A DNA stretch of 64,000 nucleotides from an uncultured Eubacteriales bacterium (GTDB lineage Bacteria > Bacillota > Clostridia > Oscillospirales > Oscillospiraceae): the NCBI GenBank assembly GCA_900552015.1, contig URXY01000003.1, forward strand, positions 4,808 to 68,807, in the 5' to 3' direction. The notes under the pieces were generated by a model. The model saw only the letters and a list, made by a program, of their open reading frames with translations. It searched no databases and was not told the DNA's origin. This document shows, in pieces, positions 19,447 to 58,352 of the stretch (positions within the stretch are counted from its first letter, which is position 1; each line of letters begins with the position of its first letter). A program made the position numbers and the translations under genes.

Positions 19447-20778
19447 TTAGTAGCTGCCGAGGTCGGCGGACTTGTCGCCCTCGACGCTGACGCCGAAGAC
19501 ATAGTCGTTGCCGGGCAGGATGGCGTTGAGGATGACGCCGCAGAGGGCTGCGATGGCGAGGCCGGAGAGCGTGACCGCCGCGTCGCCGACGGTGAAGGTG
19601 ATGCCGCCGACGGAGCTGAAGCCGAGGCCGCTGACGAACATGACCGCCGCGATGATGAGGTTGCGGGACTTGGTGAGGTCGACCTGGTTTTCCACGATGT
19701 TGCGCACGCCGACCGCGGAGATCATACCGTAGAGGATGAAGCTGACGCCGCCGACGATGGCCGCGGGGATGGAGTTGACGAGCGCGTCAAACTTGGGGGA
19801 GAAGCTCAGGATGATGGCGTAGATGGCCGCGAGGCGCACGACGCGGGGGTCGTAGACCTTGGAGAGGGCGAGCACGCCGGTGTTCTCACCGTAGGTGGTG
19901 TTGGCGGGGCCGCCGAACATACCGGCAAAGGCGGTGGCAAGACCGTCGCCGAGCAGCGTGCGGTGCAGGCCGGGATCTTCGATGAAGTTGCGGCCGGTGG
20001 TGGAGGAGATGGCGGAGATATCGCCGATGTGCTCCATCATGGCGGCGATGGCGATGGGGGCCATGACGAGGATGGCGGAAACGTCGAACTTTGCGATGAT
20101 GAACTTCTGGAGACCGACGAGGTGCGCGCTGTTTACGGCAGAGAAGTCGACCTTACCGGCAACAAGAGCAACGATGTAGCTGCCGACCACGCCGAGAAGG
20201 ATAGGAATGATCTTGATCATGCCCTTGCCCCAGATGTTGGCGACCACGATGATGGCCATAGCGACGAGGGCGAGCCACCAGCAGGTGGAGGCGTTATTGA
20301 TGGCGGAGCCGGAGAGGTTGAGGCCGATCATGATGATCATCGGGCCGGTGACGATGGGCGGGAAGTAACGCATGACCTTCTTCGCGCCGAGGAGCTTGAA
20401 GAGCAGCGCCAGCACGAGGTAGAGAAGACCCGCGATCACGATGCCGCCGAGCGCGTAGGCGAGCTTGAGCTCAGGGTCGATGCCCTCATAAGCGGGGAGC
20501 GATGCGACCGTGGAGAAGCCGCCGAGGTAGGCGAAGGAGGAGCCGAGGAACGCGGGGACCTTAAACTTGGTGCAGACGTGGAAGAGGAGCGTGCCGAGAC
20601 CGGCAAAGAGCAGCGTCGTCTGGATGGAGAGGGGCAGGCCGTAGCCCTGCACGAGGATGGGGACGAGCACCGTTGCGCCGAACATGGCGAACATATGCTG
20701 CAATCCGAGGACCAACATTCTGGGGGTGCCCAGCTGACGGGCATCGTAGATGGCTTCGTGTCCGAGTTCTTTCTTCAT
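19447..20778 (-). CDS. uracil permease (NCS2 / nucleobase:cation symporter-2 family, UraA/PyrP-like)
   Basis: Strong similarity to UraA (LQHMFAMFGATVLVPILV ... NTTYGENTGVLA). Start ATG 20778 (MKKELGHEAIYDARQLG); upstream track codons are alternate-start extensions. Confidence 0.85.
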   Translation of the reverse strand: MKKELGHEAIYDARQLGTPRMLVLGLQHMFAMFGATVLVPILVQGYGLPLSIQTTLLFAGLGTLLFHVCTKFKVPAFLGSSFAYLGGFSTVASLPAYEGIDPELKLAYALGGIVIAGLLYLVLALLFKLLGAKKVMRYFPPIVTGPMIIMIGLNLSGSAINNASTCWWLALVAMAIIVVANIWGKGMIKIIPILLGVVGSYIVALVAGKVDFSAVNSAHLVGLQKFIIAKFDVSAILVMAPIAIAAMMEHIGDISAISSTTGRNFIEDPGLHRTLLGDGLATAFAGMFGGPANTTYGENTGVLALSKVYDPRVVRLAAIYAIILSFSPKFDALVNSIPAAIVGGVSFILYGMISAVGVRNIVENQVDLTKSRNLIIAAVMFVSGLGFSSVGGITFTVGDAAVTLSGLAIAALCGVILNAILPGNDYVFGVSVEGDKSADLGSY

Positions 20779-20848
20779 GTGATTTTTCCCTTTCTGCTTT
20801 TTTATTCTTATTTTCATTTGAATAAACATGATCCTGCCCCGCGCGGGC

Positions 20849-20880
20849 AAAAAATAAGACCGGTAAAAAATTACCGGTCA
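20849..20880 (-). terminator. leader (attenuator) terminator upstream of the uracil permease: 9-bp stem GACCGGUAA / UUACCGGUC followed by UUAUUUUUU
   Basis: Read directly on the minus strand. Lies about 70 nt upstream of the permease start codon. Confidence 0.55.
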
Positions 20881-20966
20881 ACAGAAACAATATCAATATC
20901 AATAAAAACAGAAACAAAACGACCAATAGAGGAGTTTTTCTTTTTCGGCGCAGTGCAGAGCATCAT
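20871..20966 (-). CDS. putative 31-aa leader peptide (MMLCTAPKKKNSSIGRFVSVFIDIDIVSVDR) of the uracil permease attenuator
   Basis: AGGAGG RBS 8 nt upstream of tandem ATG ATG. The UAA stop lies inside the 5' arm of the leader terminator hairpin. A U-rich pause region precedes the terminator. Confidence 0.45.
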   Translation of the reverse strand: MMLCTAPKKKNSSIGRFVSVFIDIDIVSVDR

Positions 20967-21123
20967 GTGGCGTTCCTCCTGTTCGTTTATTGTCGTCTGA
21001 CCAAGAATACCTGAAAGTAAGGAAAATTGCAAGGTGGGATATTGCACAAGAAAAATGAAGGATATCTTTCTTTTTTGTCGCAATTTGCAGGCGGAAAGAC
21101 GAAACTTTTCCTGCAAAAACCTC

Positions 21124-21217: not shown

Positions 21218-22453
21218 ATGGAAAAGAAAAAACTCAGCCTGCCGGTGCAGATCGTTATTGCGCTTATCCTCGGTATTGCGGCCGGTCTTATCTTCTACTT
21301 TGTCGGTAAGCCCGAATTTACCACCAACTACTTAAAGCCCTTCGGCACGATCTTCGTCAATCTTCTCAAGTTCATCGTTGTGCCCGTCGTGCTGCTGTCG
21401 ATGATCGACGGCATCATCTCCATGGGCGATATGAAGAAGGTCGGCTCCGTCGGCTGGAAGACGGTCGCCTACTTCCTTGTCACCACGGCCGCGGCCTGCG
21501 TCATCGGCCTGGTATTCGCCAACCTCTTCAACAATGCAGGCTGGTTCCCCACGCTCGCGCTGGAGGACGGCGCGGTCTGGGATAAGGCCACCAGCGCCAA
21601 CTTCATGGATACCCTGGTCGCCATCTTCCCGAGCAACATGTGGAAGTCCTTCACCGACGCAAACATGCTGCAGGTCATCGTGATCGCCCTGATGTTCGGC
21701 GGCGGCATCCTTGCCGCGGGCGAAAAGGGCAAGCTTGCCAAGGACCTGGTCTCCACGCTCTATGCGGTCATCGAGCGCGTGATGGCGTTCATCATTGCCC
21801 TCAGCCCCATCGGTGTGTTTACGATGATGGCGTGGGTCGTCGCCACGCAGGGCCCCGAGATCCTGACGTCTCTCGGTATCGTGCTTGGCTGCGCTTACCT
21901 CGGATACATTGTCCACGCGATCCTCTGCTATTCCTTCTCCGCTAAGGCGTTTGCTGGCATCAGCCCCATCACCTTCTTCAAGAAGGCTTCCCCCGCGATG
22001 ATTTTCGCATTTACCTCCACCTCTTCTGCCGCTACGATCCCCCTGAGCAAGGAGTGCGCGGATGAGCTGGGCGCGGAGAACGACGTGTCCTCCTTCGTCA
22101 TCCCCCTCGGCGCGACGATCAACATGGACGGCACCGCCATCTATCAGTGCGTCGCCACCATCTTTCTTGCCACCTGCTGCGGCATGACGCTGACTCTTGG
22201 CCAGATGGTCACGATCGTCGTCACCGCAACGCTTGCCTCCATCGGCACGGCCGGTACGCCGGGCGCGGGCATGATCATGCTCGCTATGGTGCTCGAGGCG
22301 ATGAACATCCCCGTCGATATGATCATGATCATCTACGGCATCGACCGTCTTTTCGACATGGGCCGTACCTGCCTGAACATCACGGGCGATATCTCCTGCG
22401 CCTGCTGCGTGACCAAGTGGGAGAGTAAGAAGGCCGCGCAGACTGCCAAGTAA
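21218..22453 (+). CDS. dicarboxylate/amino acid:cation symporter (DAACS family, GltP/GltT-like)
   Basis: About 8 TM and re-entrant loops. Conserved SSSAATIP, PLGATINMDGTA and NITGD motifs of the SDF/DAACS family. Confidence 0.85.
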   Translation: MEKKKLSLPVQIVIALILGIAAGLIFYFVGKPEFTTNYLKPFGTIFVNLLKFIVVPVVLLSMIDGIISMGDMKKVGSVGWKTVAYFLVTTAAACVIGLVFANLFNNAGWFPTLALEDGAVWDKATSANFMDTLVAIFPSNMWKSFTDANMLQVIVIALMFGGGILAAGEKGKLAKDLVSTLYAVIERVMAFIIALSPIGVFTMMAWVVATQGPEILTSLGIVLGCAYLGYIVHAILCYSFSAKAFAGISPITFFKKASPAMIFAFTSTSSAATIPLSKECADELGAENDVSSFVIPLGATINMDGTAIYQCVATIFLATCCGMTLTLGQMVTIVVTATLASIGTAGTPGAGMIMLAMVLEAMNIPVDMIMIIYGIDRLFDMGRTCLNITGDISCACCVTKWESKKAAQTAK

Positions 22454-35500: not shown

Positions 35501-36934
35501 ATGGAAAAGCTTTTTAAGCTGAAGGCCAACGGTACGACGGTCCGCACCGAGCTCCTTGCCGGTCTCACCACGTTTATGACCATGGCCTACATCATCGCGC
35601 TCAACCCGAATCTTCTGACGAACTTTGCAGCAGGTACGCCGCTGTGGAACGGTGTGTTCCTCGCGACGTGCATTGCCTCGGCCATCGGTACGATCTGCAT
35701 GGCGTTCTTCGCCAACAAGCCCTTCGTCATGGCGCCCGGCATGGGCCTCAACAGCTTCTTTGCTGTCGTTGTGGCCAACATCGCCGTCATCAATGAGTGC
35801 GAGTATGAGTCCGCATTCCAGGCGGCGCTCGTCATCATCCTCGTTGAGGGCATCGTGTTCCTTATCCTCACGCTCTTAAAGGTCCGCGAGAAGATCGTCG
35901 AGGCCATTCCTCTCGGCGTGCGCTACGGCATCGCTCCCGCCATCGGTCTGATGCTGATGAACGTGGGCCTTGGCTCCAACGTCGGCATCTATGCTGAGGG
36001 CAACGGCTTTGCGAGTCCCTTCTACATGATGCGCGACTTCTTCGGCGCGCTCACGCCCAGCATCATCAAGGACAGCATGGGCGATGTCGGTTACAATACC
36101 ATGGTCCTGACTGTTGTGACGGCGTTCCTCGGCGTGTTCGTCATGGTCGTCCTCGCCAAGAAGGGCGTGAAGGCGGCAGTTCTCCTCGGTATGCTGTTCT
36201 CCTCCGTCATCTACTGGGCGGGCAGCGCGATCTTCCTGCACGTGAACCCCTTTGAGAGCCTGGCCACCGCGAGCTTTGTCCCGCCCTTTGCTGACATGGT
36301 CTCCTCCACTCTCTTCAAATTTGACTTTGCTGGCTTTGTGAATATCGGCTGGTTCACTGCCATCACGCTCGTCATCACCTTCTGCATGATCGATATGTTC
36401 GACACCATCGGTACCCTCGTCGGCACGGCCTCCCGCGCCGGCATGGTCGATGAAGAGGGCAACATGCCCAACATGAAGGAAGCCCTGCTCTCCGACGCCA
36501 TCGGTACGGTCGCGGGCGCCTGCACCGGTACCTCCACCGTCACGACCTTCATTGAGTCCGCCTCCGGCGTGGAAGCGGGCGGCCGCACTGGCCTGACCGC
36601 ACTGACTGCGGGCATCCTGTTTCTCGCCTGCATGTTCCTCGCTCCTATTGCCGCCATCATCCCCGGCGCTGCGACCTCCGCCGCGCTGATCTATGTCGGC
36701 GTTCTGATGCTCCAGGGCCTCAAGAATGTGGACTTCAGCGACATGGACCAAATGCTGCCGGTGTCCATCATGCTCATCGGTATGCCGATCTCCGGTTCCA
36801 TCGGCCACGCCATCGGTCTTGGTCTCATCTCCTATACCTTCGTCAAGGTCTTCTCCGGCAAGGCTAAGGACGTCAGCGTTTTGACCTACGTCATTTCCGC
36901 GCTGTTCCTCGTCAAGTTCTTCGCCGTGGTGTAA
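35501..36934 (+). CDS. NCS2-family purine permease, AzgA/PbuG-like (adenine/guanine/hypoxanthine)
   Basis: Characteristic N-terminus (MEKLFKLKANGTTVRTELLAGLTTFMTMAYIIALNPNLL) and AzgA-type length (477 aa). Confidence 0.85.
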   Translation: MEKLFKLKANGTTVRTELLAGLTTFMTMAYIIALNPNLLTNFAAGTPLWNGVFLATCIASAIGTICMAFFANKPFVMAPGMGLNSFFAVVVANIAVINECEYESAFQAALVIILVEGIVFLILTLLKVREKIVEAIPLGVRYGIAPAIGLMLMNVGLGSNVGIYAEGNGFASPFYMMRDFFGALTPSIIKDSMGDVGYNTMVLTVVTAFLGVFVMVVLAKKGVKAAVLLGMLFSSVIYWAGSAIFLHVNPFESLATASFVPPFADMVSSTLFKFDFAGFVNIGWFTAITLVITFCMIDMFDTIGTLVGTASRAGMVDEEGNMPNMKEALLSDAIGTVAGACTGTSTVTTFIESASGVEAGGRTGLTALTAGILFLACMFLAPIAAIIPGAATSAALIYVGVLMLQGLKNVDFSDMDQMLPVSIMLIGMPISGSIGHAIGLGLISYTFVKVFSGKAKDVSVLTYVISALFLVKFFAVV

Positions 36935-52551: not shown

Positions 52552-54105
52552 TCAGCTCAGATCGCCGGCGGCTTTGATCTTGACGCGGTTGGTGTTGCCG
52601 GGGTAGTAGGCGAGGGGAACGTCTTCCATCTCGATGATCTCGACGGTCTCGCGCACGGCACCGGCCTCGACCGCGAGCTCGATGGCCTCGTTCTTGGCCT
52701 TTTCGAGCGACTGCTCGCGGGGCAGCTCATCGTAGTTCATCAGCTTTTCGTAGGTACCGCTGACCTTGGAAATGGCAGAGCCGATGGCGTTGGCGCAGCC
52801 GAAATGCTCCGGCTTCAGAACCGTTGCCGCACCGCTGATCTTTTCCGGCAGGATAATGGAGCCGCCGCCGACGAGGATAAGATCGACGTCCGCGTTGGAG
52901 ACCTTCATGGCGTCCACGCTGTCTTCAACGAGGGAGCGAATGACGGCCATGGCCTTATCCGCGACCTCCTGCGGGATGTCGGCGACCTTGGACTTGTCGC
53001 CGAGCTCCACCATGCCGAGACGCACGGCGATATCGGTGGTCGTCATCGTGTTGCCGCCGAAGACGAGCGCCTTTTTCGTGATCTCATAACCCACGCTGTC
53101 GGGACCGACGGTCACGCTGCCGTCATCCTTGACGCGCACGATGGAGCCGCCGCCAAGGCCGATGGAGATGACGTCCGGCATACGGAAGTTCGTGCGCACG
53201 CCGCCGATGGTGACGGCCACGCTCGATTCACGCGGGAAGCCGTTCTGGATGACGCCGAGGTCGGTCGTCGTGCCGCCGACGTCAACGACGATGGCGTCCT
53301 TGAGCGAGGAGAGGTAGCTTGCGCCGCGGATGGAGTTCGTCGGACCGCAGGCGACCGTGAGGATAGGGTAGCGGCGGGCGTGCTCCATGGTCATGAGAGT
53401 GCCGTCGTTCTGGCTGAGATAGACGTCCGCGTTCGTGATGCCCTCGTCGCGCAGGCTCTTGGCAAAGCCCTTGGTGAAGCGCTCGGCCACTTGCCAGAGC
53501 GCGGCGTTCAGAATGGTGGCGTTCTCGCGCTCGATAAGGCCCATGGAGCCGATCTCGCTGGAGATGGAGACATGGATGTCCTCACCCATGACCTCGCGGC
53601 AGAGCTTTGCGGCCTCAAGCTCGTGGTCATTGCGGACGGTGGAGAACACGCAGGAGATGGCGACGGACTTGACGCCCTTTGCCTTCATATCGGTGAAGAA
53701 GGCCTTCGCGGCCTCCACGTCGAAGGGGGCGAGCTCCTTGCCGTCGTATTCAAAGCCGCCGCCGATGATGGCACTGCCGACAGCGACCTTCTGGATATCC
53801 TCGGCCCAGTCGACCATGGGGCGGATGCCCGTGGTGGCGGGCGCGCCGATGCGCAGGATGCCGATGGGGGCGAGGTTCTTGCGCTCCACAATGGCGTTGG
53901 TGCACTGCGTCGTGCCGAGCATGGCCTGGTGGATATGCTTGGGATCCACGCCGGAGACCTCGAGCACCGTGCGCATCGCGCCCAGAATGCCGTCGTAAAT
54001 ATCCGCAGAGGTGGGATACTTGATATCCGCGACCACCGCGCGGTTTTCGTCGATCAGGACAGCGTCCGTATTGGTGCCGCCCACATCAATTCCGAGTTTA
54101 TACAT
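52552..54105 (-). CDS. hydantoinase/oxoprolinase-family protein (HyuA-like N-terminal domain)
   Basis: Sugar-kinase/Hsp70/actin fold signatures (MYKLGIDVGGTNTD ... DVGGTTTD). Confidence 0.75.
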   Translation of the reverse strand: MYKLGIDVGGTNTDAVLIDENRAVVADIKYPTSADIYDGILGAMRTVLEVSGVDPKHIHQAMLGTTQCTNAIVERKNLAPIGILRIGAPATTGIRPMVDWAEDIQKVAVGSAIIGGGFEYDGKELAPFDVEAAKAFFTDMKAKGVKSVAISCVFSTVRNDHELEAAKLCREVMGEDIHVSISSEIGSMGLIERENATILNAALWQVAERFTKGFAKSLRDEGITNADVYLSQNDGTLMTMEHARRYPILTVACGPTNSIRGASYLSSLKDAIVVDVGGTTTDLGVIQNGFPRESSVAVTIGGVRTNFRMPDVISIGLGGGSIVRVKDDGSVTVGPDSVGYEITKKALVFGGNTMTTTDIAVRLGMVELGDKSKVADIPQEVADKAMAVIRSLVEDSVDAMKVSNADVDLILVGGGSIILPEKISGAATVLKPEHFGCANAIGSAISKVSGTYEKLMNYDELPREQSLEKAKNEAIELAVEAGAVRETVEIIEMEDVPLAYYPGNTNRVKIKAAGDLS

Positions 54106-54107
54106 CG

Positions 54108-55199
54108 TTAGTTACCTCCTTTGCTGCGCTCTTCGAGCGGAATGTAGTCGGTGTCCACGCCGAAGTAGCGCGGGCCTACGAGCTCAAGGCCCTTTTCCGT
54201 GCGCCAGAGGTGGAAGCACTTGAGACCGACCACCATGACGCGCTTACCGTACTTGAGCGCGTCGGTCGTGACAGGGGTAAAGGTCTCCGTATCCACCAGC
54301 GAAATAAGGTCGGGGGTGGTGGCAAGGATCCTGCCGTCCACCGTGGCGGTCAGGTTCTCATTCTGGAACTCCACATAGGCGGTATGGCCCTTGCACTCAC
54401 CGATGCCCTCCAGCACCACCTTGCCGATGTTGAAGCCGGCCCGGGTCTCGCGCAGCACGTCTGCGATCTTGCCCTTGAAGAGCTTGAAGCCTTCGGACAT
54501 TTCAAGGAAGTGCTCCTCGGGCGTCTTGTCGCCGCAGTCCTTGACGGTGCGGATGGCGCGGCCCAGCTGCTGGCTGCGGGTCACGATGCCGTGAACGCCA
54601 AACTCCTTCATCTCTTTACCGCTCATGGGATAAAGAGACACGGAAACGGATGCGCCGCAGCTCATGGTGACCGCCCGGGCCAGCTCCTCCGTCCACTTGT
54701 TGGTGATGGTCTCAAAGATACAGCTGTTGCCCTTCTCGTCCACCAGCGCCATCGGCGTTGCCTTCATACCGCCGATGGTAAAGGTCACCATCTGCAATTC
54801 AGGGAAAGCGCGGCCCATGCCGTCCACATCCACCATCGGCATATTCAGTCGGGCCGCCGCGGCGATGGGCAGCATGGAGTTGACGCCGCCAGCCTCGATG
54901 GGCATAAAGGCGTAGATATCCCTGCCAAAGAACTTGGATACCATATCAAATAGCTTTTTGTATTCGTTTCCGCCGATGCCCTTCTCTGCCAAGACCGTCG
55001 GCGCGCCCATCATGGCGATGGGGACGACGAGCGCGTCGTCCGGCACCTCCTCCGGCTCGAGCAGCGTGACAGGACCGCACTCCTGCACCGCGCCGATGGC
55101 AACGAGCTTGCCGACATAGGGGTCGCCGCCGCCGCCCGCGCCCAGCAGGGCTGCGCCGGTGGCAATATCTTCGATCTCAGGGATACCGATTTTTCGCAT
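54108..55199 (-). CDS. DUF917 family protein (partner of hydantoinase-like proteins)
   Basis: N-terminal GAALLGAGGGGDPY signature and about 360 aa, typical of DUF917. Arranged in tandem with the hydantoinase-like gene. Confidence 0.7.
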   Translation of the reverse strand: MRKIGIPEIEDIATGAALLGAGGGGDPYVGKLVAIGAVQECGPVTLLEPEEVPDDALVVPIAMMGAPTVLAEKGIGGNEYKKLFDMVSKFFGRDIYAFMPIEAGGVNSMLPIAAAARLNMPMVDVDGMGRAFPELQMVTFTIGGMKATPMALVDEKGNSCIFETITNKWTEELARAVTMSCGASVSVSLYPMSGKEMKEFGVHGIVTRSQQLGRAIRTVKDCGDKTPEEHFLEMSEGFKLFKGKIADVLRETRAGFNIGKVVLEGIGECKGHTAYVEFQNENLTATVDGRILATTPDLISLVDTETFTPVTTDALKYGKRVMVVGLKCFHLWRTEKGLELVGPRYFGVDTDYIPLEERSKGGN

Positions 55200-55276
55200 G
55201 ACCTTTTCCTTCTTTCATTAAAATTACAACGCAAGGAGAAGCGAGCGGACGCTTGCTCCTCCTGCAAGAGAGGGGA

Positions 55277-56599
55277 TTACGCAGTTTCCTTTTCGGGAAA
55301 GACCTTCGCAAGGATGACGTACAGCACGAGCGAGACGACGATACCGTTGACCGGGCCGACAAAGAACGGCCAGTTCAGGAACGGCAGGGCCTCGACAAGG
55401 CCGGGGAAGCTTGCGAACGTGCCGCCGGTGATGCAGGCGAAGATAGCGCCCACAGCGAAGGAGATGATGCCGACGGCGGAGAAGCCGGAACGGATGGCGA
55501 AGTTTTCCTTCTTGCCCTTGCCGACGATCCAGTAGGACGCAATGAGCACGCCCGCGAGCGGCGGGATGAGGGCGGACATGAGCGACAGGAAGCTCTGGAA
55601 GGCGTTGAGCAGGCCGAAGGCGGCGAGCAGCGTGCCGATGCCGCCGGCGACGCCGGTCGTGACCTTGAACTTGCTCTCATCAAAGCCGAGCAGGTTGCTC
55701 AAGGCGAGACCGCCAGAGTAAGCATTGGTGACGTTGGTCGTCCAGGTGGCGAGCACAAGGGCGATAAGGCCGATGAACGGCACGCCGAGGGAGGCGAGGA
55801 TGGCGGAGATGTCATACTGGCCCGTGACGATGCTCATCAGCGCGCCGGTCATGAGCATGAAGAGACCTGCGGGGATGACGCCGACGATGGAGGACTTGAC
55901 CACGTCGCCGCGGCTCTTGGCAAAGCGGCAGTAGTCGGCGGAGATGACGCCGCCGAGGGCAAAGGAGGCAACGACCATGGAGATGCCGAACACCAGACCG
56001 CTCGAGACTTCAGGCGCATAGTTCGCGATGGCGCTGCCGCCGTCGTTGGCGGTGATACCGGCGATCAGGCCGTACAGGCAGACGATGACGAGCAGGGGAA
56101 CGGCGATGTAGTTGAGCCACTTGAGACCCTTGAAGCCGATGCAGGCCGTGACCAGCATGATGACGCCCCAGACGATGGAGCTGATAGAGACGAACAGGGG
56201 AGACGCCTCAGTGCCCATCATGCTCGCAAGCATACTGGCAAAGGCGCTGCCGCAGGTCGCGGACTGAATGCCGAACCAGCCGACGCAGGCGATGGCAAGG
56301 AGCGTGCTGATGATGTAGCGCGCGCCCTTTTCACCCAGCGCGCCGGAGGCCATCACCGAAACGGGAAGGCCCGTATCACAGGCCTGCATACCGATGCAGA
56401 TCATATATGCGCAGATCAGACCGTAGCCGATCAGAATGGACGCAATGATCTCGCCCATGCTCAGTCCGCCGCCGGCCAGCACGCCGCCGATCATCAGGCA
56501 GGGGACACAGATCATGCCGCCCGCCCAGACTGCCGCGATGGACAGCCAGTTCTGGCGTTGGGATTCGTCTACTTTGAATCCGCTGTTGTTTTCACTCAT
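55277..56599 (-). CDS. NCS1 family nucleobase/cytosine-type permease (CodB-like)
   Basis: 12-TM protein with purine-cytosine permease family conservation. Start ATG 56599 (MSENNSGFK). The track ORF is extended upstream by an alternate start. Confidence 0.8.
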   Translation of the reverse strand: MSENNSGFKVDESQRQNWLSIAAVWAGGMICVPCLMIGGVLAGGGLSMGEIIASILIGYGLICAYMICIGMQACDTGLPVSVMASGALGEKGARYIISTLLAIACVGWFGIQSATCGSAFASMLASMMGTEASPLFVSISSIVWGVIMLVTACIGFKGLKWLNYIAVPLLVIVCLYGLIAGITANDGGSAIANYAPEVSSGLVFGISMVVASFALGGVISADYCRFAKSRGDVVKSSIVGVIPAGLFMLMTGALMSIVTGQYDISAILASLGVPFIGLIALVLATWTTNVTNAYSGGLALSNLLGFDESKFKVTTGVAGGIGTLLAAFGLLNAFQSFLSLMSALIPPLAGVLIASYWIVGKGKKENFAIRSGFSAVGIISFAVGAIFACITGGTFASFPGLVEALPFLNWPFFVGPVNGIVVSLVLYVILAKVFPEKETA

Positions 56600-56693
56600 G
56601 GAAAGCACCTCTTTTTTGGAAGTTTTGCGGGGGGAAAATGAAGAATGGGGCAAGTATAACACCGGAAAATGCAAATGAATACTGTCGGATAGG

Positions 56694-56746
56694 CAGAAAA
56701 AAAGCTCCACGCATTGTCCTGAAAGACAATTCGTGGAGCTTTTCTC
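56694..56746. terminator. bidirectional terminator between the PucR regulator and the permease operon
   Basis: 16-bp stem AGCTCCACGCATTGTC / GACAATTCGTGGAGCT (1 mismatch) flanked by A7 and T4. Confidence 0.65.
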
Positions 56747-56756
56747 ATAATGAATA

Positions 56757-58352
56757 TCAATGCGCCTCATGGAGCAGGCGGTAAATGGCCGCGCCGCGGT
56801 AAAGCTCGATGGTCTCTGGCATCTTGCCGATACGGTAGCCCAGAAGGTCGGAGATGCGCTGCAGGCGGTATTTGATGGTGTTCTTGTGCAGAAACAGCAT
56901 CTCTGCTGTACGGGTCACGCTGCTGTCGCAGTCCAAAAGGAACACGCAGGCGGTGTGTAGCAGTTCCGGATATTCCGTCTCAGACTGGAGGACAGAGAGC
57001 GGCAGGATGCGCTGCGCGGCAGCGGCCTCGCCCTCGCTGATGCGCCTGCGGCAGGAGGAGGCGAGCTCCAGCTCGCCCTGCAGAAATACATTTTTGTGGG
57101 GGAAAATGCGTTTTGCGTCGTCCAAGTTGTCCAGCATCGACAAATATGCGCGGCGGCAGCTTGTTGTATTGGACAATCCGCTGCAGCGGACGACCACAGC
57201 GTCCGGACTGGCTCTGAGCGCACCAGCAAGGAGCTCCTGTATCACGCTCTCCGCTTCGCGCAGCGAGTGGGGCGTGCTCAGAAACATGACGGGTTGGCCT
57301 TCATAGATGCCGCCGACGACGGTGTCGGCACACTGGCGCGCGAGCGCGAGGTCCTGCTCCATGCGGGAGCTCACTTCGTCCGCACTTGTGCCGCAGAGCA
57401 TCCAGAGCTCATGGATGGCGGCGACGTCAACATGGAAAATGTCGGCCAGGCGCCGCATCTTGAGCGGATCATCCTGCAAAATGGCACGCAGCAGCTCGTG
57501 GATAGCGACCGCGCCATGCTGCCGGCCCCAGATATTGATGCAGATACGCACGGTGTCCGCCGCCTGCTCCACGGCGCGCTCGCCCAGCGGCGTGCCGACC
57601 TTGATGAGCGTTAGCTGGAGCGGCTGGGCAAGGTCCGACTGAATGGAGACAGAAGACATTTCCGCGTCTGGCAGGAAGGAACATGGTAGGTGCGCCTGCT
57701 CCGCGGGCAGCGGCAGACGGCGCTCAATGCCCTCGCGGATGGTATCGTCCATGCCGCTTGGCCAGGTGGCGAGATTCAGGATGTTGCCCTCATGGGTACT
57801 CAGCACCGCCGAGCAGCCGAGCTCCGCGCAGAGCATTTGCAGCGCTGTGCCGACCGACTGCTGGTGATGCGGCGCGGACGAGATGCGCGCAAGAATGTCC
57901 GACACGAGCGAACCGGCTGATGAGCGATCGCGGTAGATGCACTCCGTCACGTCGGTGATGAGGTCGCTGTAGCGCAGATGCCGCTGCCCCTCCGGCATAC
58001 AGATGAGCACGAAGTCATGCGTGTCGGCAATGTCGATGAGCCGCTGATCCACGGAGGGAAGGTAGACACCGACGTAGTACAGCACGAGCCCAACTTCGCC
58101 GCCGTCGATGAGCCGCATAAGGTTCAGGCACTGACGGTCTATGTCGTTGATGCAGTTCAAAAAGCCTGTGATGACGATCTCGCTTCCGGAGTACTTGTCA
58201 TGCGGGAAGACCTCGTTGACGAGGACCGAGGGGTCCGTGGATTCCAGCACCGAGATGGACGAGACCACCTTTTGCAGTCCGCCCGCCCCGCCCAGGACCT
58301 TCGCCTGCCGCAGAGAGGGGAGCTTCAGCAGATCCGATACCGTAACGCTCAC
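56757..58352 (-). CDS. PucR-family transcriptional regulator (purine catabolism regulator-like, C-terminal HTH)
   Basis: N-terminal PucR-type domain (MSVTVSDLLKLPSLRQAKVLGGAGGL). C-terminal PucR HTH (TAEMLFLHKNTIKYRLQRISDLLG). Confidence 0.8.
   Translation of the reverse strand: MSVTVSDLLKLPSLRQAKVLGGAGGLQKVVSSISVLESTDPSVLVNEVFPHDKYSGSEIVITGFLNCINDIDRQCLNLMRLIDGGEVGLVLYYVGVYLPSVDQRLIDIADTHDFVLICMPEGQRHLRYSDLITDVTECIYRDRSSAGSLVSDILARISSAPHHQQSVGTALQMLCAELGCSAVLSTHEGNILNLATWPSGMDDTIREGIERRLPLPAEQAHLPCSFLPDAEMSSVSIQSDLAQPLQLTLIKVGTPLGERAVEQAADTVRICINIWGRQHGAVAIHELLRAILQDDPLKMRRLADIFHVDVAAIHELWMLCGTSADEVSSRMEQDLALARQCADTVVGGIYEGQPVMFLSTPHSLREAESVIQELLAGALRASPDAVVVRCSGLSNTTSCRRAYLSMLDNLDDAKRIFPHKNVFLQGELELASSCRRRISEGEAAAAQRILPLSVLQSETEYPELLHTACVFLLDCDSSVTRTAEMLFLHKNTIKYRLQRISDLLGYRIGKMPETIELYRGAAIYRLLHEAH

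Follow-up and report, generated by a model that had tools for sequence, protein, structure and literature searches.

Introduction

In the pyrBI operon of Escherichia coli and Salmonella, a short leader open reading frame (ORF), pyrL, which has its own Shine-Dalgarno (SD) sequence, is followed by a U-rich stretch and an intrinsic terminator ahead of a gene of the pyrimidine pathway. This leader contains no antiterminator hairpin; it is a ribosome travelling close behind RNA polymerase that blocks the terminator hairpin, and termination is prevented only when transcription and translation are tightly coupled (PMC5021804). In Bacillus and other Firmicutes, by comparison, the uracil permease gene is subject to PyrR attenuation, in which premature intrinsic termination is governed through a PyrR-binding element (Rfam family RF00515). 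Here we analyse a leader found in a stretch of 64,000 nucleotides, hereafter the window, from an uncultured Eubacteriales bacterium of the Oscillospiraceae (contig URXY01000003.1, positions 4,808 to 68,807 of the forward strand; assembly GCA_900552015.1). Upstream of a predicted uracil permease gene on the minus strand, a 31-codon ORF ends inside the 5' arm of an intrinsic terminator and, as we show below, this layout, together with a strong enrichment for U before the hairpin, is conserved in related loci that have diverged widely in sequence. We argue that the leader is probably a transcription attenuator operated by the ribosome, in which RNA polymerase and the first ribosome race each other and the outcome reflects the pool of pyrimidine nucleotides.

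Anatomy of the leader

The permease gene and the divergent gene for an SDF-family symporter (21218-22453, plus strand) are separated by 440 bp, and this gap holds the leader, whose features are all read on the minus strand. A putative sigma-A promoter (21004-21032) comprises the -35 element TTGCAA (21032-21027), a 17-nt spacer and the -10 element TATTCT (21009-21004). It scores 8/12, under the cut-off of the scanner, and its position matches that of the sequence TTGCAT-17-TATAAT in relatives. From this promoter transcription would start near 20998-20996, leaving about 17 nt of 5' untranslated region (UTR) before the SD sequence AGGAGG (20975-20980). After an 8-nt spacer the predicted leader ORF (20871-20966) opens with the ATG at 20966 and extends for 31 codons (MMLCTAPKKKNSSIGRFVSVFIDIDIVSVDR) to a UAA stop at 20873-20871. 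Its first half contains an A-rich box of Lys codons, GAAAAAGAAAAAC (20934-20946), and towards its end lies a U-rich tract (20880-20920) in which 27 of 41 nt are T (66%) and which includes a single T5 run and the motif TTNTTT twice. We propose that polymerase would pause in this tract in a manner that is sensitive to UTP, dependent on NusG, or both. The terminator hairpin, GACCGGTAA-TTTT-TTACCGGTC (20858-20879), has 9 bp, five of them G-C pairs, and was called by the terminator scan; the leader stop sits 6 nt into its 5' arm. The hairpin is followed by the U tail TTATTTTTT (20849-20857), 70 nt ahead of the permease ATG. For comparison, the G+C content of the whole window is 59%, and on its two strands only 347 of 127,930 segments of 36 nt contain at least 19 T.

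An earlier note on this DNA, made by reading the letters, had described a strong ribosome-binding site (RBS), the 31-codon ORF with its UAA stop in the 5' arm of a terminator, a strikingly U-rich region before that terminator and a distance of about 70 nt to the permease start; each of these features lies where the note had placed it. The same note had taken the downstream gene to encode a uracil permease, an assignment with which the protein agrees. The gene (19447-20795, minus strand) has a purine-rich RBS region at about 20795-20779, begins with the ATG at 20778 and encodes 443 amino acids, ending at 19447. The product is a UraA-like NCS2 protein (PF00860 at 302 bits) whose nearest solved structures are three UraA uracil-permease chains, and it retains both of the substrate-binding glutamates of UraA, E241 (MEHIG) and E290 (NTTYGEN). 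Look-up of the exact protein returned no record.

Comparison with described attenuators

With pyrBI the leader shares a dedicated, SD-led short ORF, a U-rich stretch before an intrinsic terminator, a target in pyrimidine metabolism and the lack of an antiterminator hairpin, whose place would again be taken by a ribosome close behind polymerase. E. coli pyrL also has an A-rich patch of Lys codons, CTGAAAAAAGAC, which is like GAAAAAGAAAAAC in the window leader, and a pyrimidine stretch, CCGTTTTTCTTCCCGTT, after which comes its terminator. The pyrL ORF of 44 codons, however, takes in the whole terminator and stops only 3 nt short of pyrB, whereas that of the window ends in the 5' arm. The U tract of the window leader is denser than that of pyrL and abuts the hairpin, and both the host lineage, Clostridia, and the target, a transporter, are unlike those of pyrBI.

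In the placement of its stop codon the leader is closer to rph-pyrE, in which the stop of the upstream ORF adjoins the terminator hairpin. In E. coli the frame 3' of the K-12 frameshift site, which we take to be the wild-type rph frame, is closed by a TGA that precedes the hairpin by 8 nt. The rph-1 frameshift of K-12 shifts the stop upstream and lowers pyrE expression. Unlike the leaders described here, which are dedicated ORFs of 18-37 codons with their own promoter, rph is a full-length gene, and rph-pyrE of Enterobacteria lacks the U-rich tract that these leaders have directly upstream of the hairpin. Judged from its sequence, the geometry is a hybrid, pyrBI-like in its dedicated U-rich leader ORF and pyrE-like in having the stop beside the hairpin. 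The earlier note's reading of the leader as an attenuator of the pyrBI/pyrE kind is supported, with this hybrid geometry as a qualification. The peptides themselves, which were all that was compared, gave no BLASTP alignment between the window leader and E. coli pyrL at E <= 100. The element would work like the pyrBI and pyrE attenuators, and no evidence that it descends from them was found.

Other systems share single aspects of the arrangement. In the Thermus pyr operon a short leader ORF overlaps the terminator and its translation is proposed to prevent termination, the signal being PyrR, which blocks translation of the leader; the window leader, by contrast, has no PyrR site. With the PyrR attenuators of Firmicutes the leader has in common an orthologous permease gene, premature intrinsic termination and, as proposed here, a response to pyrimidines, but it has neither a PyrR-binding loop nor an antiterminator or anti-antiterminator, and a predicted ORF fills it. 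In E. coli upp-uraA a uracil permease is placed under UTP control without a repressor, which is also what we propose here, by UTP-sensitive start-site selection and reiterative transcription that act at initiation on a start-site T run. The leaders described here have no T run after the -10 element, and none is present at the likely start site in the window, so that reiterative initiation of the upp kind, or of the kind that adds a further control to pyrBI, is not suggested (reiterative transcription in general is described in PMC6524683). Among Firmicutes, tlrB and vmlR of Bacillus subtilis have short leader ORFs that are translated while polymerase pauses at TTNTTT, as we propose for this leader, and at tlrB these T-rich, NusG-dependent pauses allow time for translation of the leader peptide (PMC11602163). 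The bmrCD genes with BmrB are described as another Firmicute leader-peptide attenuator of the T-rich NusG-pause kind (PMC4191407). The tlrB, vmlR and bmrCD leaders sense ribosome-targeting antibiotics by means of alternative hairpins, whereas none is conserved here and the target is a nucleobase transporter.

Conservation of the layout in relatives

The comparison set consisted of 80 loci encoding relatives of the permease, obtained from a scan of one genome per species and cited below by L number where they have to be told apart. In 24 of these loci, as in the window, the permease gene is preceded by a promoter, a GGAGG-like SD sequence, a start codon, an ORF of 18-37 codons with a U-rich second half, and a terminator. 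These 25 leaders thus show conservation, as an ORF, of the small frame that the earlier note had singled out, with its stop overlapping or adjoining the terminator, and with it conservation of the U-rich region; the same layout is visible by eye in a further locus, L062. The GGAGG-like sequence is present in all 25, usually 6-9 nt upstream of a start codon that is ATG in 24 cases and GTG in one. The record titles of the 24 loci are mostly of Oscillospiraceae type (Vescimonas, Oscillibacter, Dysosmobacter, Lawsonibacter and Pseudoflavonifractor capillosus). A cultured strain, P. capillosus An386a (L022; NZ_JACSNZ010000006.1), has a leader ORF of 19 codons whose stop lies 1 nt before a 13-bp hairpin.

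The register between the stop codon and the hairpin is among the best-supported features. Of the 25 leaders, 22 have the stop at -6 to +4 nt relative to the base of the hairpin, and in the other three (L021, L050 and L055) it falls within a longer hairpin; in none is it well upstream of the hairpin or past it. Frame 0 is open in all 25 leaders, compared with 7 for the +1 frame and 15 for +2. Hairpins of the TGACCGG/CGCCGG type are read in two registers, TTT TGA CCG or GAC CGG TAA, one group comprising L003, L006, L008, L010, L011 and L067 and the other the window, L001, L002, L007, L014 and L043. As each register yields a stop in the 5' arm of one and the same hairpin, it appears that the position of the stop is itself under selection. 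The leader peptides, on the other hand, are barely conserved. Their first half is polar and in many cases rich in Lys, and their second half is rich in Phe, Ser, Val, Ile and Leu; close relatives share some features, such as KKK and VS(V/I)F, and the AAAAAG of the Lys-codon box recurs in at least nine relatives. The variation in ORF length, the two registers and the differing terminator sequences together indicate that the layout has been maintained through substantial turnover of sequence.

The association of such an ORF with a terminator is also specific to this gene. The terminator scan returned 208 terminator-like sites in the 644 kb made up by the window and the 80 loci, both strands included. 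When these sites were scanned blind for an SD-led ORF of 14-50 codons ending at the hairpin, 21 permease leaders were recovered, as against five other sites. The pyrimidine content of the five is ordinary or low, and we take them to be chance matches; beyond them, no further copy of the architecture was found at another gene in the window or the 80 loci. Among the sequences examined, the layout is thus restricted to this permease. Neither is it universal for the permease, as most of the other loci, which are mainly of Lachnospiraceae type, have no such leader. In L071, a locus from a Clostridia metagenome-assembled genome, pyrR (2390-2944) ends about 60 nt upstream of the permease gene in the classical pyrR-pyrP arrangement. 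L013 and L061 have no leader ORF upstream of the permease and share one upstream gene; in L013 the stop of that gene lies about 10 nt before a terminator hairpin, about 30 nt ahead of the permease RBS, an arrangement that is superficially rph-pyrE-like.

Nucleotide-level selection for U

When the 25 leaders were aligned at their stop codons, the proportion of T rose from 14-29% early in the ORF to 48-54% over the final 30 nt, where that of A, counted in 10-nt bins, fell to 7-16%. Immediately before the leader terminators, a stretch of 36 nt contains on average 53% T and 73% pyrimidine, and at the 186 other terminator-like sites T averages 26% (Mann-Whitney p = 5e-13 for the difference in T). 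The tract is kept in composition and not in sequence. A T run of at least five occurs in 20 of the 25 leaders and the TTNTTT motif in 16.

The distribution of T over codon positions indicates the level at which this enrichment is maintained. In the last 12 codons of the leaders T occupies positions 1, 2 and 3 in 39%, 46% and 62% of cases, respectively, whereas in the coding sequence of the window permease it occupies position 3 in 8%. The last codons of the window leader read GTT TCT GTT TTT ATT GAT ATT GAT ATT GTT TCT GTT; in the permease gene GTT accounts for 3 of 43 Val codons, ATT for 1 of 42 Ile codons and TCT for 1 of 29 Ser codons. The leaders thus employ the synonymous codons that the genome favours least. 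As U is most enriched at synonymous positions, against the codon bias, it is on the nucleic acid, RNA or DNA, that selection appears to act and not on the encoded peptide, which points to a requirement for U in the transcript or for T in the non-template strand. This is the pattern that a nucleotide-level signal such as UTP-sensitive pausing would be predicted to leave.

RNA structure and searches for known elements

In 11 aligned leaders examined with RNAalifold, the terminator was the only conserved structure, supported by compensatory double changes at 6 of 8 pairs. The same alignment contained no conserved antiterminator, anti-antiterminator, anti-SD helix or aptamer, and no conserved pairing partner for the Lys-codon box. 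Folded as a single sequence, the window leader gives z = -2.9, and the long-range pairing between the A-rich box and the U tail that appears in this fold is not conserved. Indeed, the 5' UTR of about 17 nt predicted here would leave no space for an antiterminator or an aptamer.

Searches against Rfam gave a similar picture. A scan of the window leader at E <= 10 returned sub-threshold noise and no PyrR element; the best score was 22 bits for L20_leader (gathering score 58.7), and Phe_leader reached 18.8 bits on the wrong strand (gathering score 55). The weak L20_leader, Phe_leader and frnS matches were rejected, as they reflect the presence of a U-rich stretch followed by a terminator. In 40 related loci, and likewise across the window, no PyrR element came up to the gathering score, results that accord with the earlier note, in which no PyrR box had been found. 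The note had named a PyrR box and a leader ORF lacking conservation among the outcomes that would refute its reading, and neither was observed. Across positions 1-64000 of the window, no family at all reached its gathering score, tRNA included.

Several conventional forms of control were rejected on these grounds. A riboswitch finds no Rfam match and no conserved aptamer structure, and what follows the putative 5' UTR of about 17 nt is ORF. For a PyrR-dependent attenuator the binding stem-loop is missing, the terminator being the sole conserved helix. A classical amino-acid attenuator of the trpL, hisL or pheL kind is at variance with the variable peptides, the lack of a repeated codon class and the lack of an alternative hairpin. 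We also asked whether the U tract, whose composition would allow it to base-pair with the purine-rich RBS of the permease gene, might form a second switch at the level of translation. Cognate duplexes have -15.95 kcal/mol and non-cognate duplexes -15.34 kcal/mol, with a mean z of -0.5 against shuffled sequences; as cognate partners pair no better than non-cognate ones, this interaction was rejected as a specific feature of the leader.

A proposed race between polymerase and ribosome

The model that we consider probable is one in which the leader senses UTP, and possibly also CTP, by the relative progress of polymerase and the first ribosome. Transcription would start about 17 nt upstream of the strong SD sequence, so that a ribosome could load on the 31-codon ORF as soon as this emerges. 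With UTP (and CTP) plentiful, polymerase would rapidly cross the U-rich second half of the ORF and then the terminator, so that the hairpin would form ahead of the ribosome and transcription would end at the U tail, 70 nt short of the permease gene. Termination is expected to be the default in so short an ORF because the hairpin and U tail would be made before a ribosome could initiate and translate 20-30 codons, all the more so if polymerase outruns ribosomes as it does in B. subtilis. When UTP is low, polymerase would stall repeatedly in the 41-nt tract, in which 66% of residues are U, possibly assisted by NusG at TTNTTT; as about three-quarters of the nucleotides incorporated in the tract are UTP or CTP, low pools would be expected to slow it. 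The ribosome would then catch up, reach the stop in the 5' arm and keep that arm in the mRNA channel, thereby blocking the hairpin, and polymerase would read through into the uracil permease gene. A fall in pyrimidine nucleotides would in this way increase uracil uptake.

The proposed role of the ribosome in this scheme has support from other systems. In E. coli, termination fell from about 90% to less than 10%, in a translation-dependent manner, when a stop codon was moved so as to lie 5 bp ahead of a terminator, and on the 3' side of its A site the ribosome shields some 10 nt or more (PMC4824070). Given this footprint, and stops at -6 to +4 nt from the hairpin base, a translating ribosome could cover the 5' arm of the terminator. 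The ribosome would also be what gives the response its direction. In the usual kinetic view slow synthesis of the U tail would by itself favour termination, and it is the ribosome that would invert the response.

A number of points weigh against this model. In B. subtilis polymerase outruns ribosomes (PMC13323073), and the mechanism accordingly depends on strong pausing in the tract; of the 25 leaders, nine lack TTNTTT and five lack a T run of at least five. A 2010 survey reported leader-peptide attenuators to be rare in Firmicutes, with almost none known (PMC2965389). The 25 loci share descent, and the counts given above are not those of independent events. What the sequences show is the anatomy, its conservation, selection for U at the nucleotide level, the lack of an alternative RNA structure or PyrR site and, as far as they extend, restriction of the layout to this permease; that the leader is translated, that pausing is sensitive to UTP, that the ribosome occludes the hairpin and that the response runs in the direction given above is inferred from them, as is, by similarity to UraA, the probable substrate of the permease, which falls below the cut-off of the NCBIfam uracil-permease equivalog (318.7 against 477). 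The locus sequences provide no regulon-level support. Searches by tBLASTn with E. coli PyrB, PyrI and PyrE gave no match in any locus or in the window, and the PyrR encoded by L071 matched only L071 itself in a search of all loci and the window.

Alternative explanations

It could be argued that the leader is a ribosome-dependent attenuator that responds to something other than UTP, such as translation capacity, the supply of charged tRNA, or a stall of the nascent peptide with a ligand at the stop codon as in TnaC, in which case the tract would be a constitutive pause. This explanation, which we regard as unlikely, draws on the best-supported features of the leader, the ORF and the register of its stop with the hairpin, and the KKK and VS(V/I)F elements shared by close relatives would fit it, as would the use of UGA as the stop in 16 of the 25 leaders. 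Family-wide, however, the peptides are conserved only in composition and the ORFs contain no block of codons for a single amino acid; the enrichment of U, being maximal at synonymous positions, argues for a signal in the RNA or DNA, and such an input offers no physiological logic for a pyrimidine transporter. Composition likewise accounts for the one property that might suggest a functional micro-protein, for instance an accessory peptide of the transporter, encoded ahead of an ordinary leaky terminator. The C-terminal halves of the peptides are indeed hydrophobic, but they are so because the U-rich codons, used against the codon bias, specify such residues. The hydrophobic stretch is below membrane-span length, the peptides range from 18 to 37 residues with no conservation of sequence, and the locking of the stop to the hairpin would be left unexplained, all of which makes a micro-protein most improbable.

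Explanations that place the signal in the tract but dispense with the race fare no better against the stop codon. Termination might be controlled by a factor acting in trans on the single-stranded, U/C-rich tract (an uncharacterised pyrimidine-responsive RNA-binding protein, Hfq, a cold-shock protein or a small RNA, sRNA), the ORF being secondary. The tract is poor in A and about 73% pyrimidine, many leaders contain GUUUC-like repeats, and purine-rich sequences pair with it at about -16 kcal/mol, all of which such a factor could exploit. It is nevertheless a doubtful proposition: beyond close relatives neither the sequence nor the spacing of the tract is conserved, there is no conserved structure, PyrR box or, at the loci, neighbouring regulator gene, the pairing with cognate RBS sequences is no better than with non-cognate ones, and neither the strong SD sequence nor the tight register of stop and hairpin would be explained. 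The tract could also be an entry site for Rho, or an element of mRNA stability, that is shielded by translation, with the intrinsic terminator incidental, since Rho of B. subtilis favours T-rich RNA with C in excess of G that is exposed by runaway transcription; its targets, however, require this bias over more than 150 nt (PMC13323073). The tract, at 35-45 nt, falls far short of this length and is part of an ORF, and a canonical hairpin and U tail conserved with covariation come after it, on which grounds Rho-dependent attenuation was rejected and the explanation as a whole seems very remote.

Implications of the model

It is an evenly balanced question whether gut Oscillospiraceae have independently evolved a repressor-free sensor of UTP and CTP, based on a race between polymerase and ribosome, that takes the place of PyrR at the uracil permease gene. 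If they have, a dense U-rich pause tract, possibly assisted by NusG, can force functional coupling of transcription and translation and make it usable for metabolite sensing, in a phylum in which polymerase is thought normally to outrun the ribosome. As far as the literature found extends, the leader would be the first nucleotide-sensing leader-peptide attenuator in Clostridia and would clearly have converged on the kind of control that enterobacteria exert at pyrBI and pyrE. No pyrBI-like or leader-peptide attenuator was found in the literature at uracil permease genes or pyrP, or in Clostridia, in a search that left subscription journals mostly uncovered, so that an older report may exist. 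The leader bears on whether Firmicutes can regulate by coupling of ribosome and polymerase, and at about 150 nt would provide a compact natural system in which to test this. Abundant gut anaerobes may control uracil salvage in this way at a gene that lacks a PyrR site, and it is possible to speculate that uptake of fluoropyrimidine drugs is affected. The leaders also draw attention to a type of small ORF that gene callers may overlook, and the signature of U at synonymous sites, which is simple to search for, could bring similar sensors to light at other genes of nucleotide metabolism. The terminated leader RNA, expected to be abundant and of about 140-150 nt from the putative start, resembles an sRNA in consisting of a U-rich stretch and a terminator, and might act in trans.

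Neighbouring features of the leader and the loci

Immediately 3' of the U tail the window has a GC-rich hairpin, GCCCGCGCGGGGC (20836-20848, minus strand), whose membership in the element is uncertain. L001 and L002 carry it too, L003, L007 and L014 have variants of it, and L004-L006 and L008 lack it; the hairpin might stabilise read-through transcripts or block backtracking of polymerase.

Two further nucleobase transporter loci are present in the window. A second NCS2 gene (35501-36934, plus strand) stands behind a TTGCAT...TATAAT promoter, and an NCS1 permease cluster (52552-58352, minus strand) includes genes for a hydantoinase, an S-Me-THD-like protein and a PucR-type regulator. Both transporters lack a leader ORF and terminator of the kind described above, and both lack an Rfam riboswitch. 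In the related loci the genes downstream of the permease are heterogeneous. Lysine riboswitches lie just downstream of the permease in three of them (L010:4524-4693, L011:4479-4654 and L012:4460-4631), and near the permease there are also an FMN riboswitch (L008:5903-6021), a ZTP riboswitch (L032:4459-4539) and two TwoAYGGAY RNAs (L039:5100-5706).

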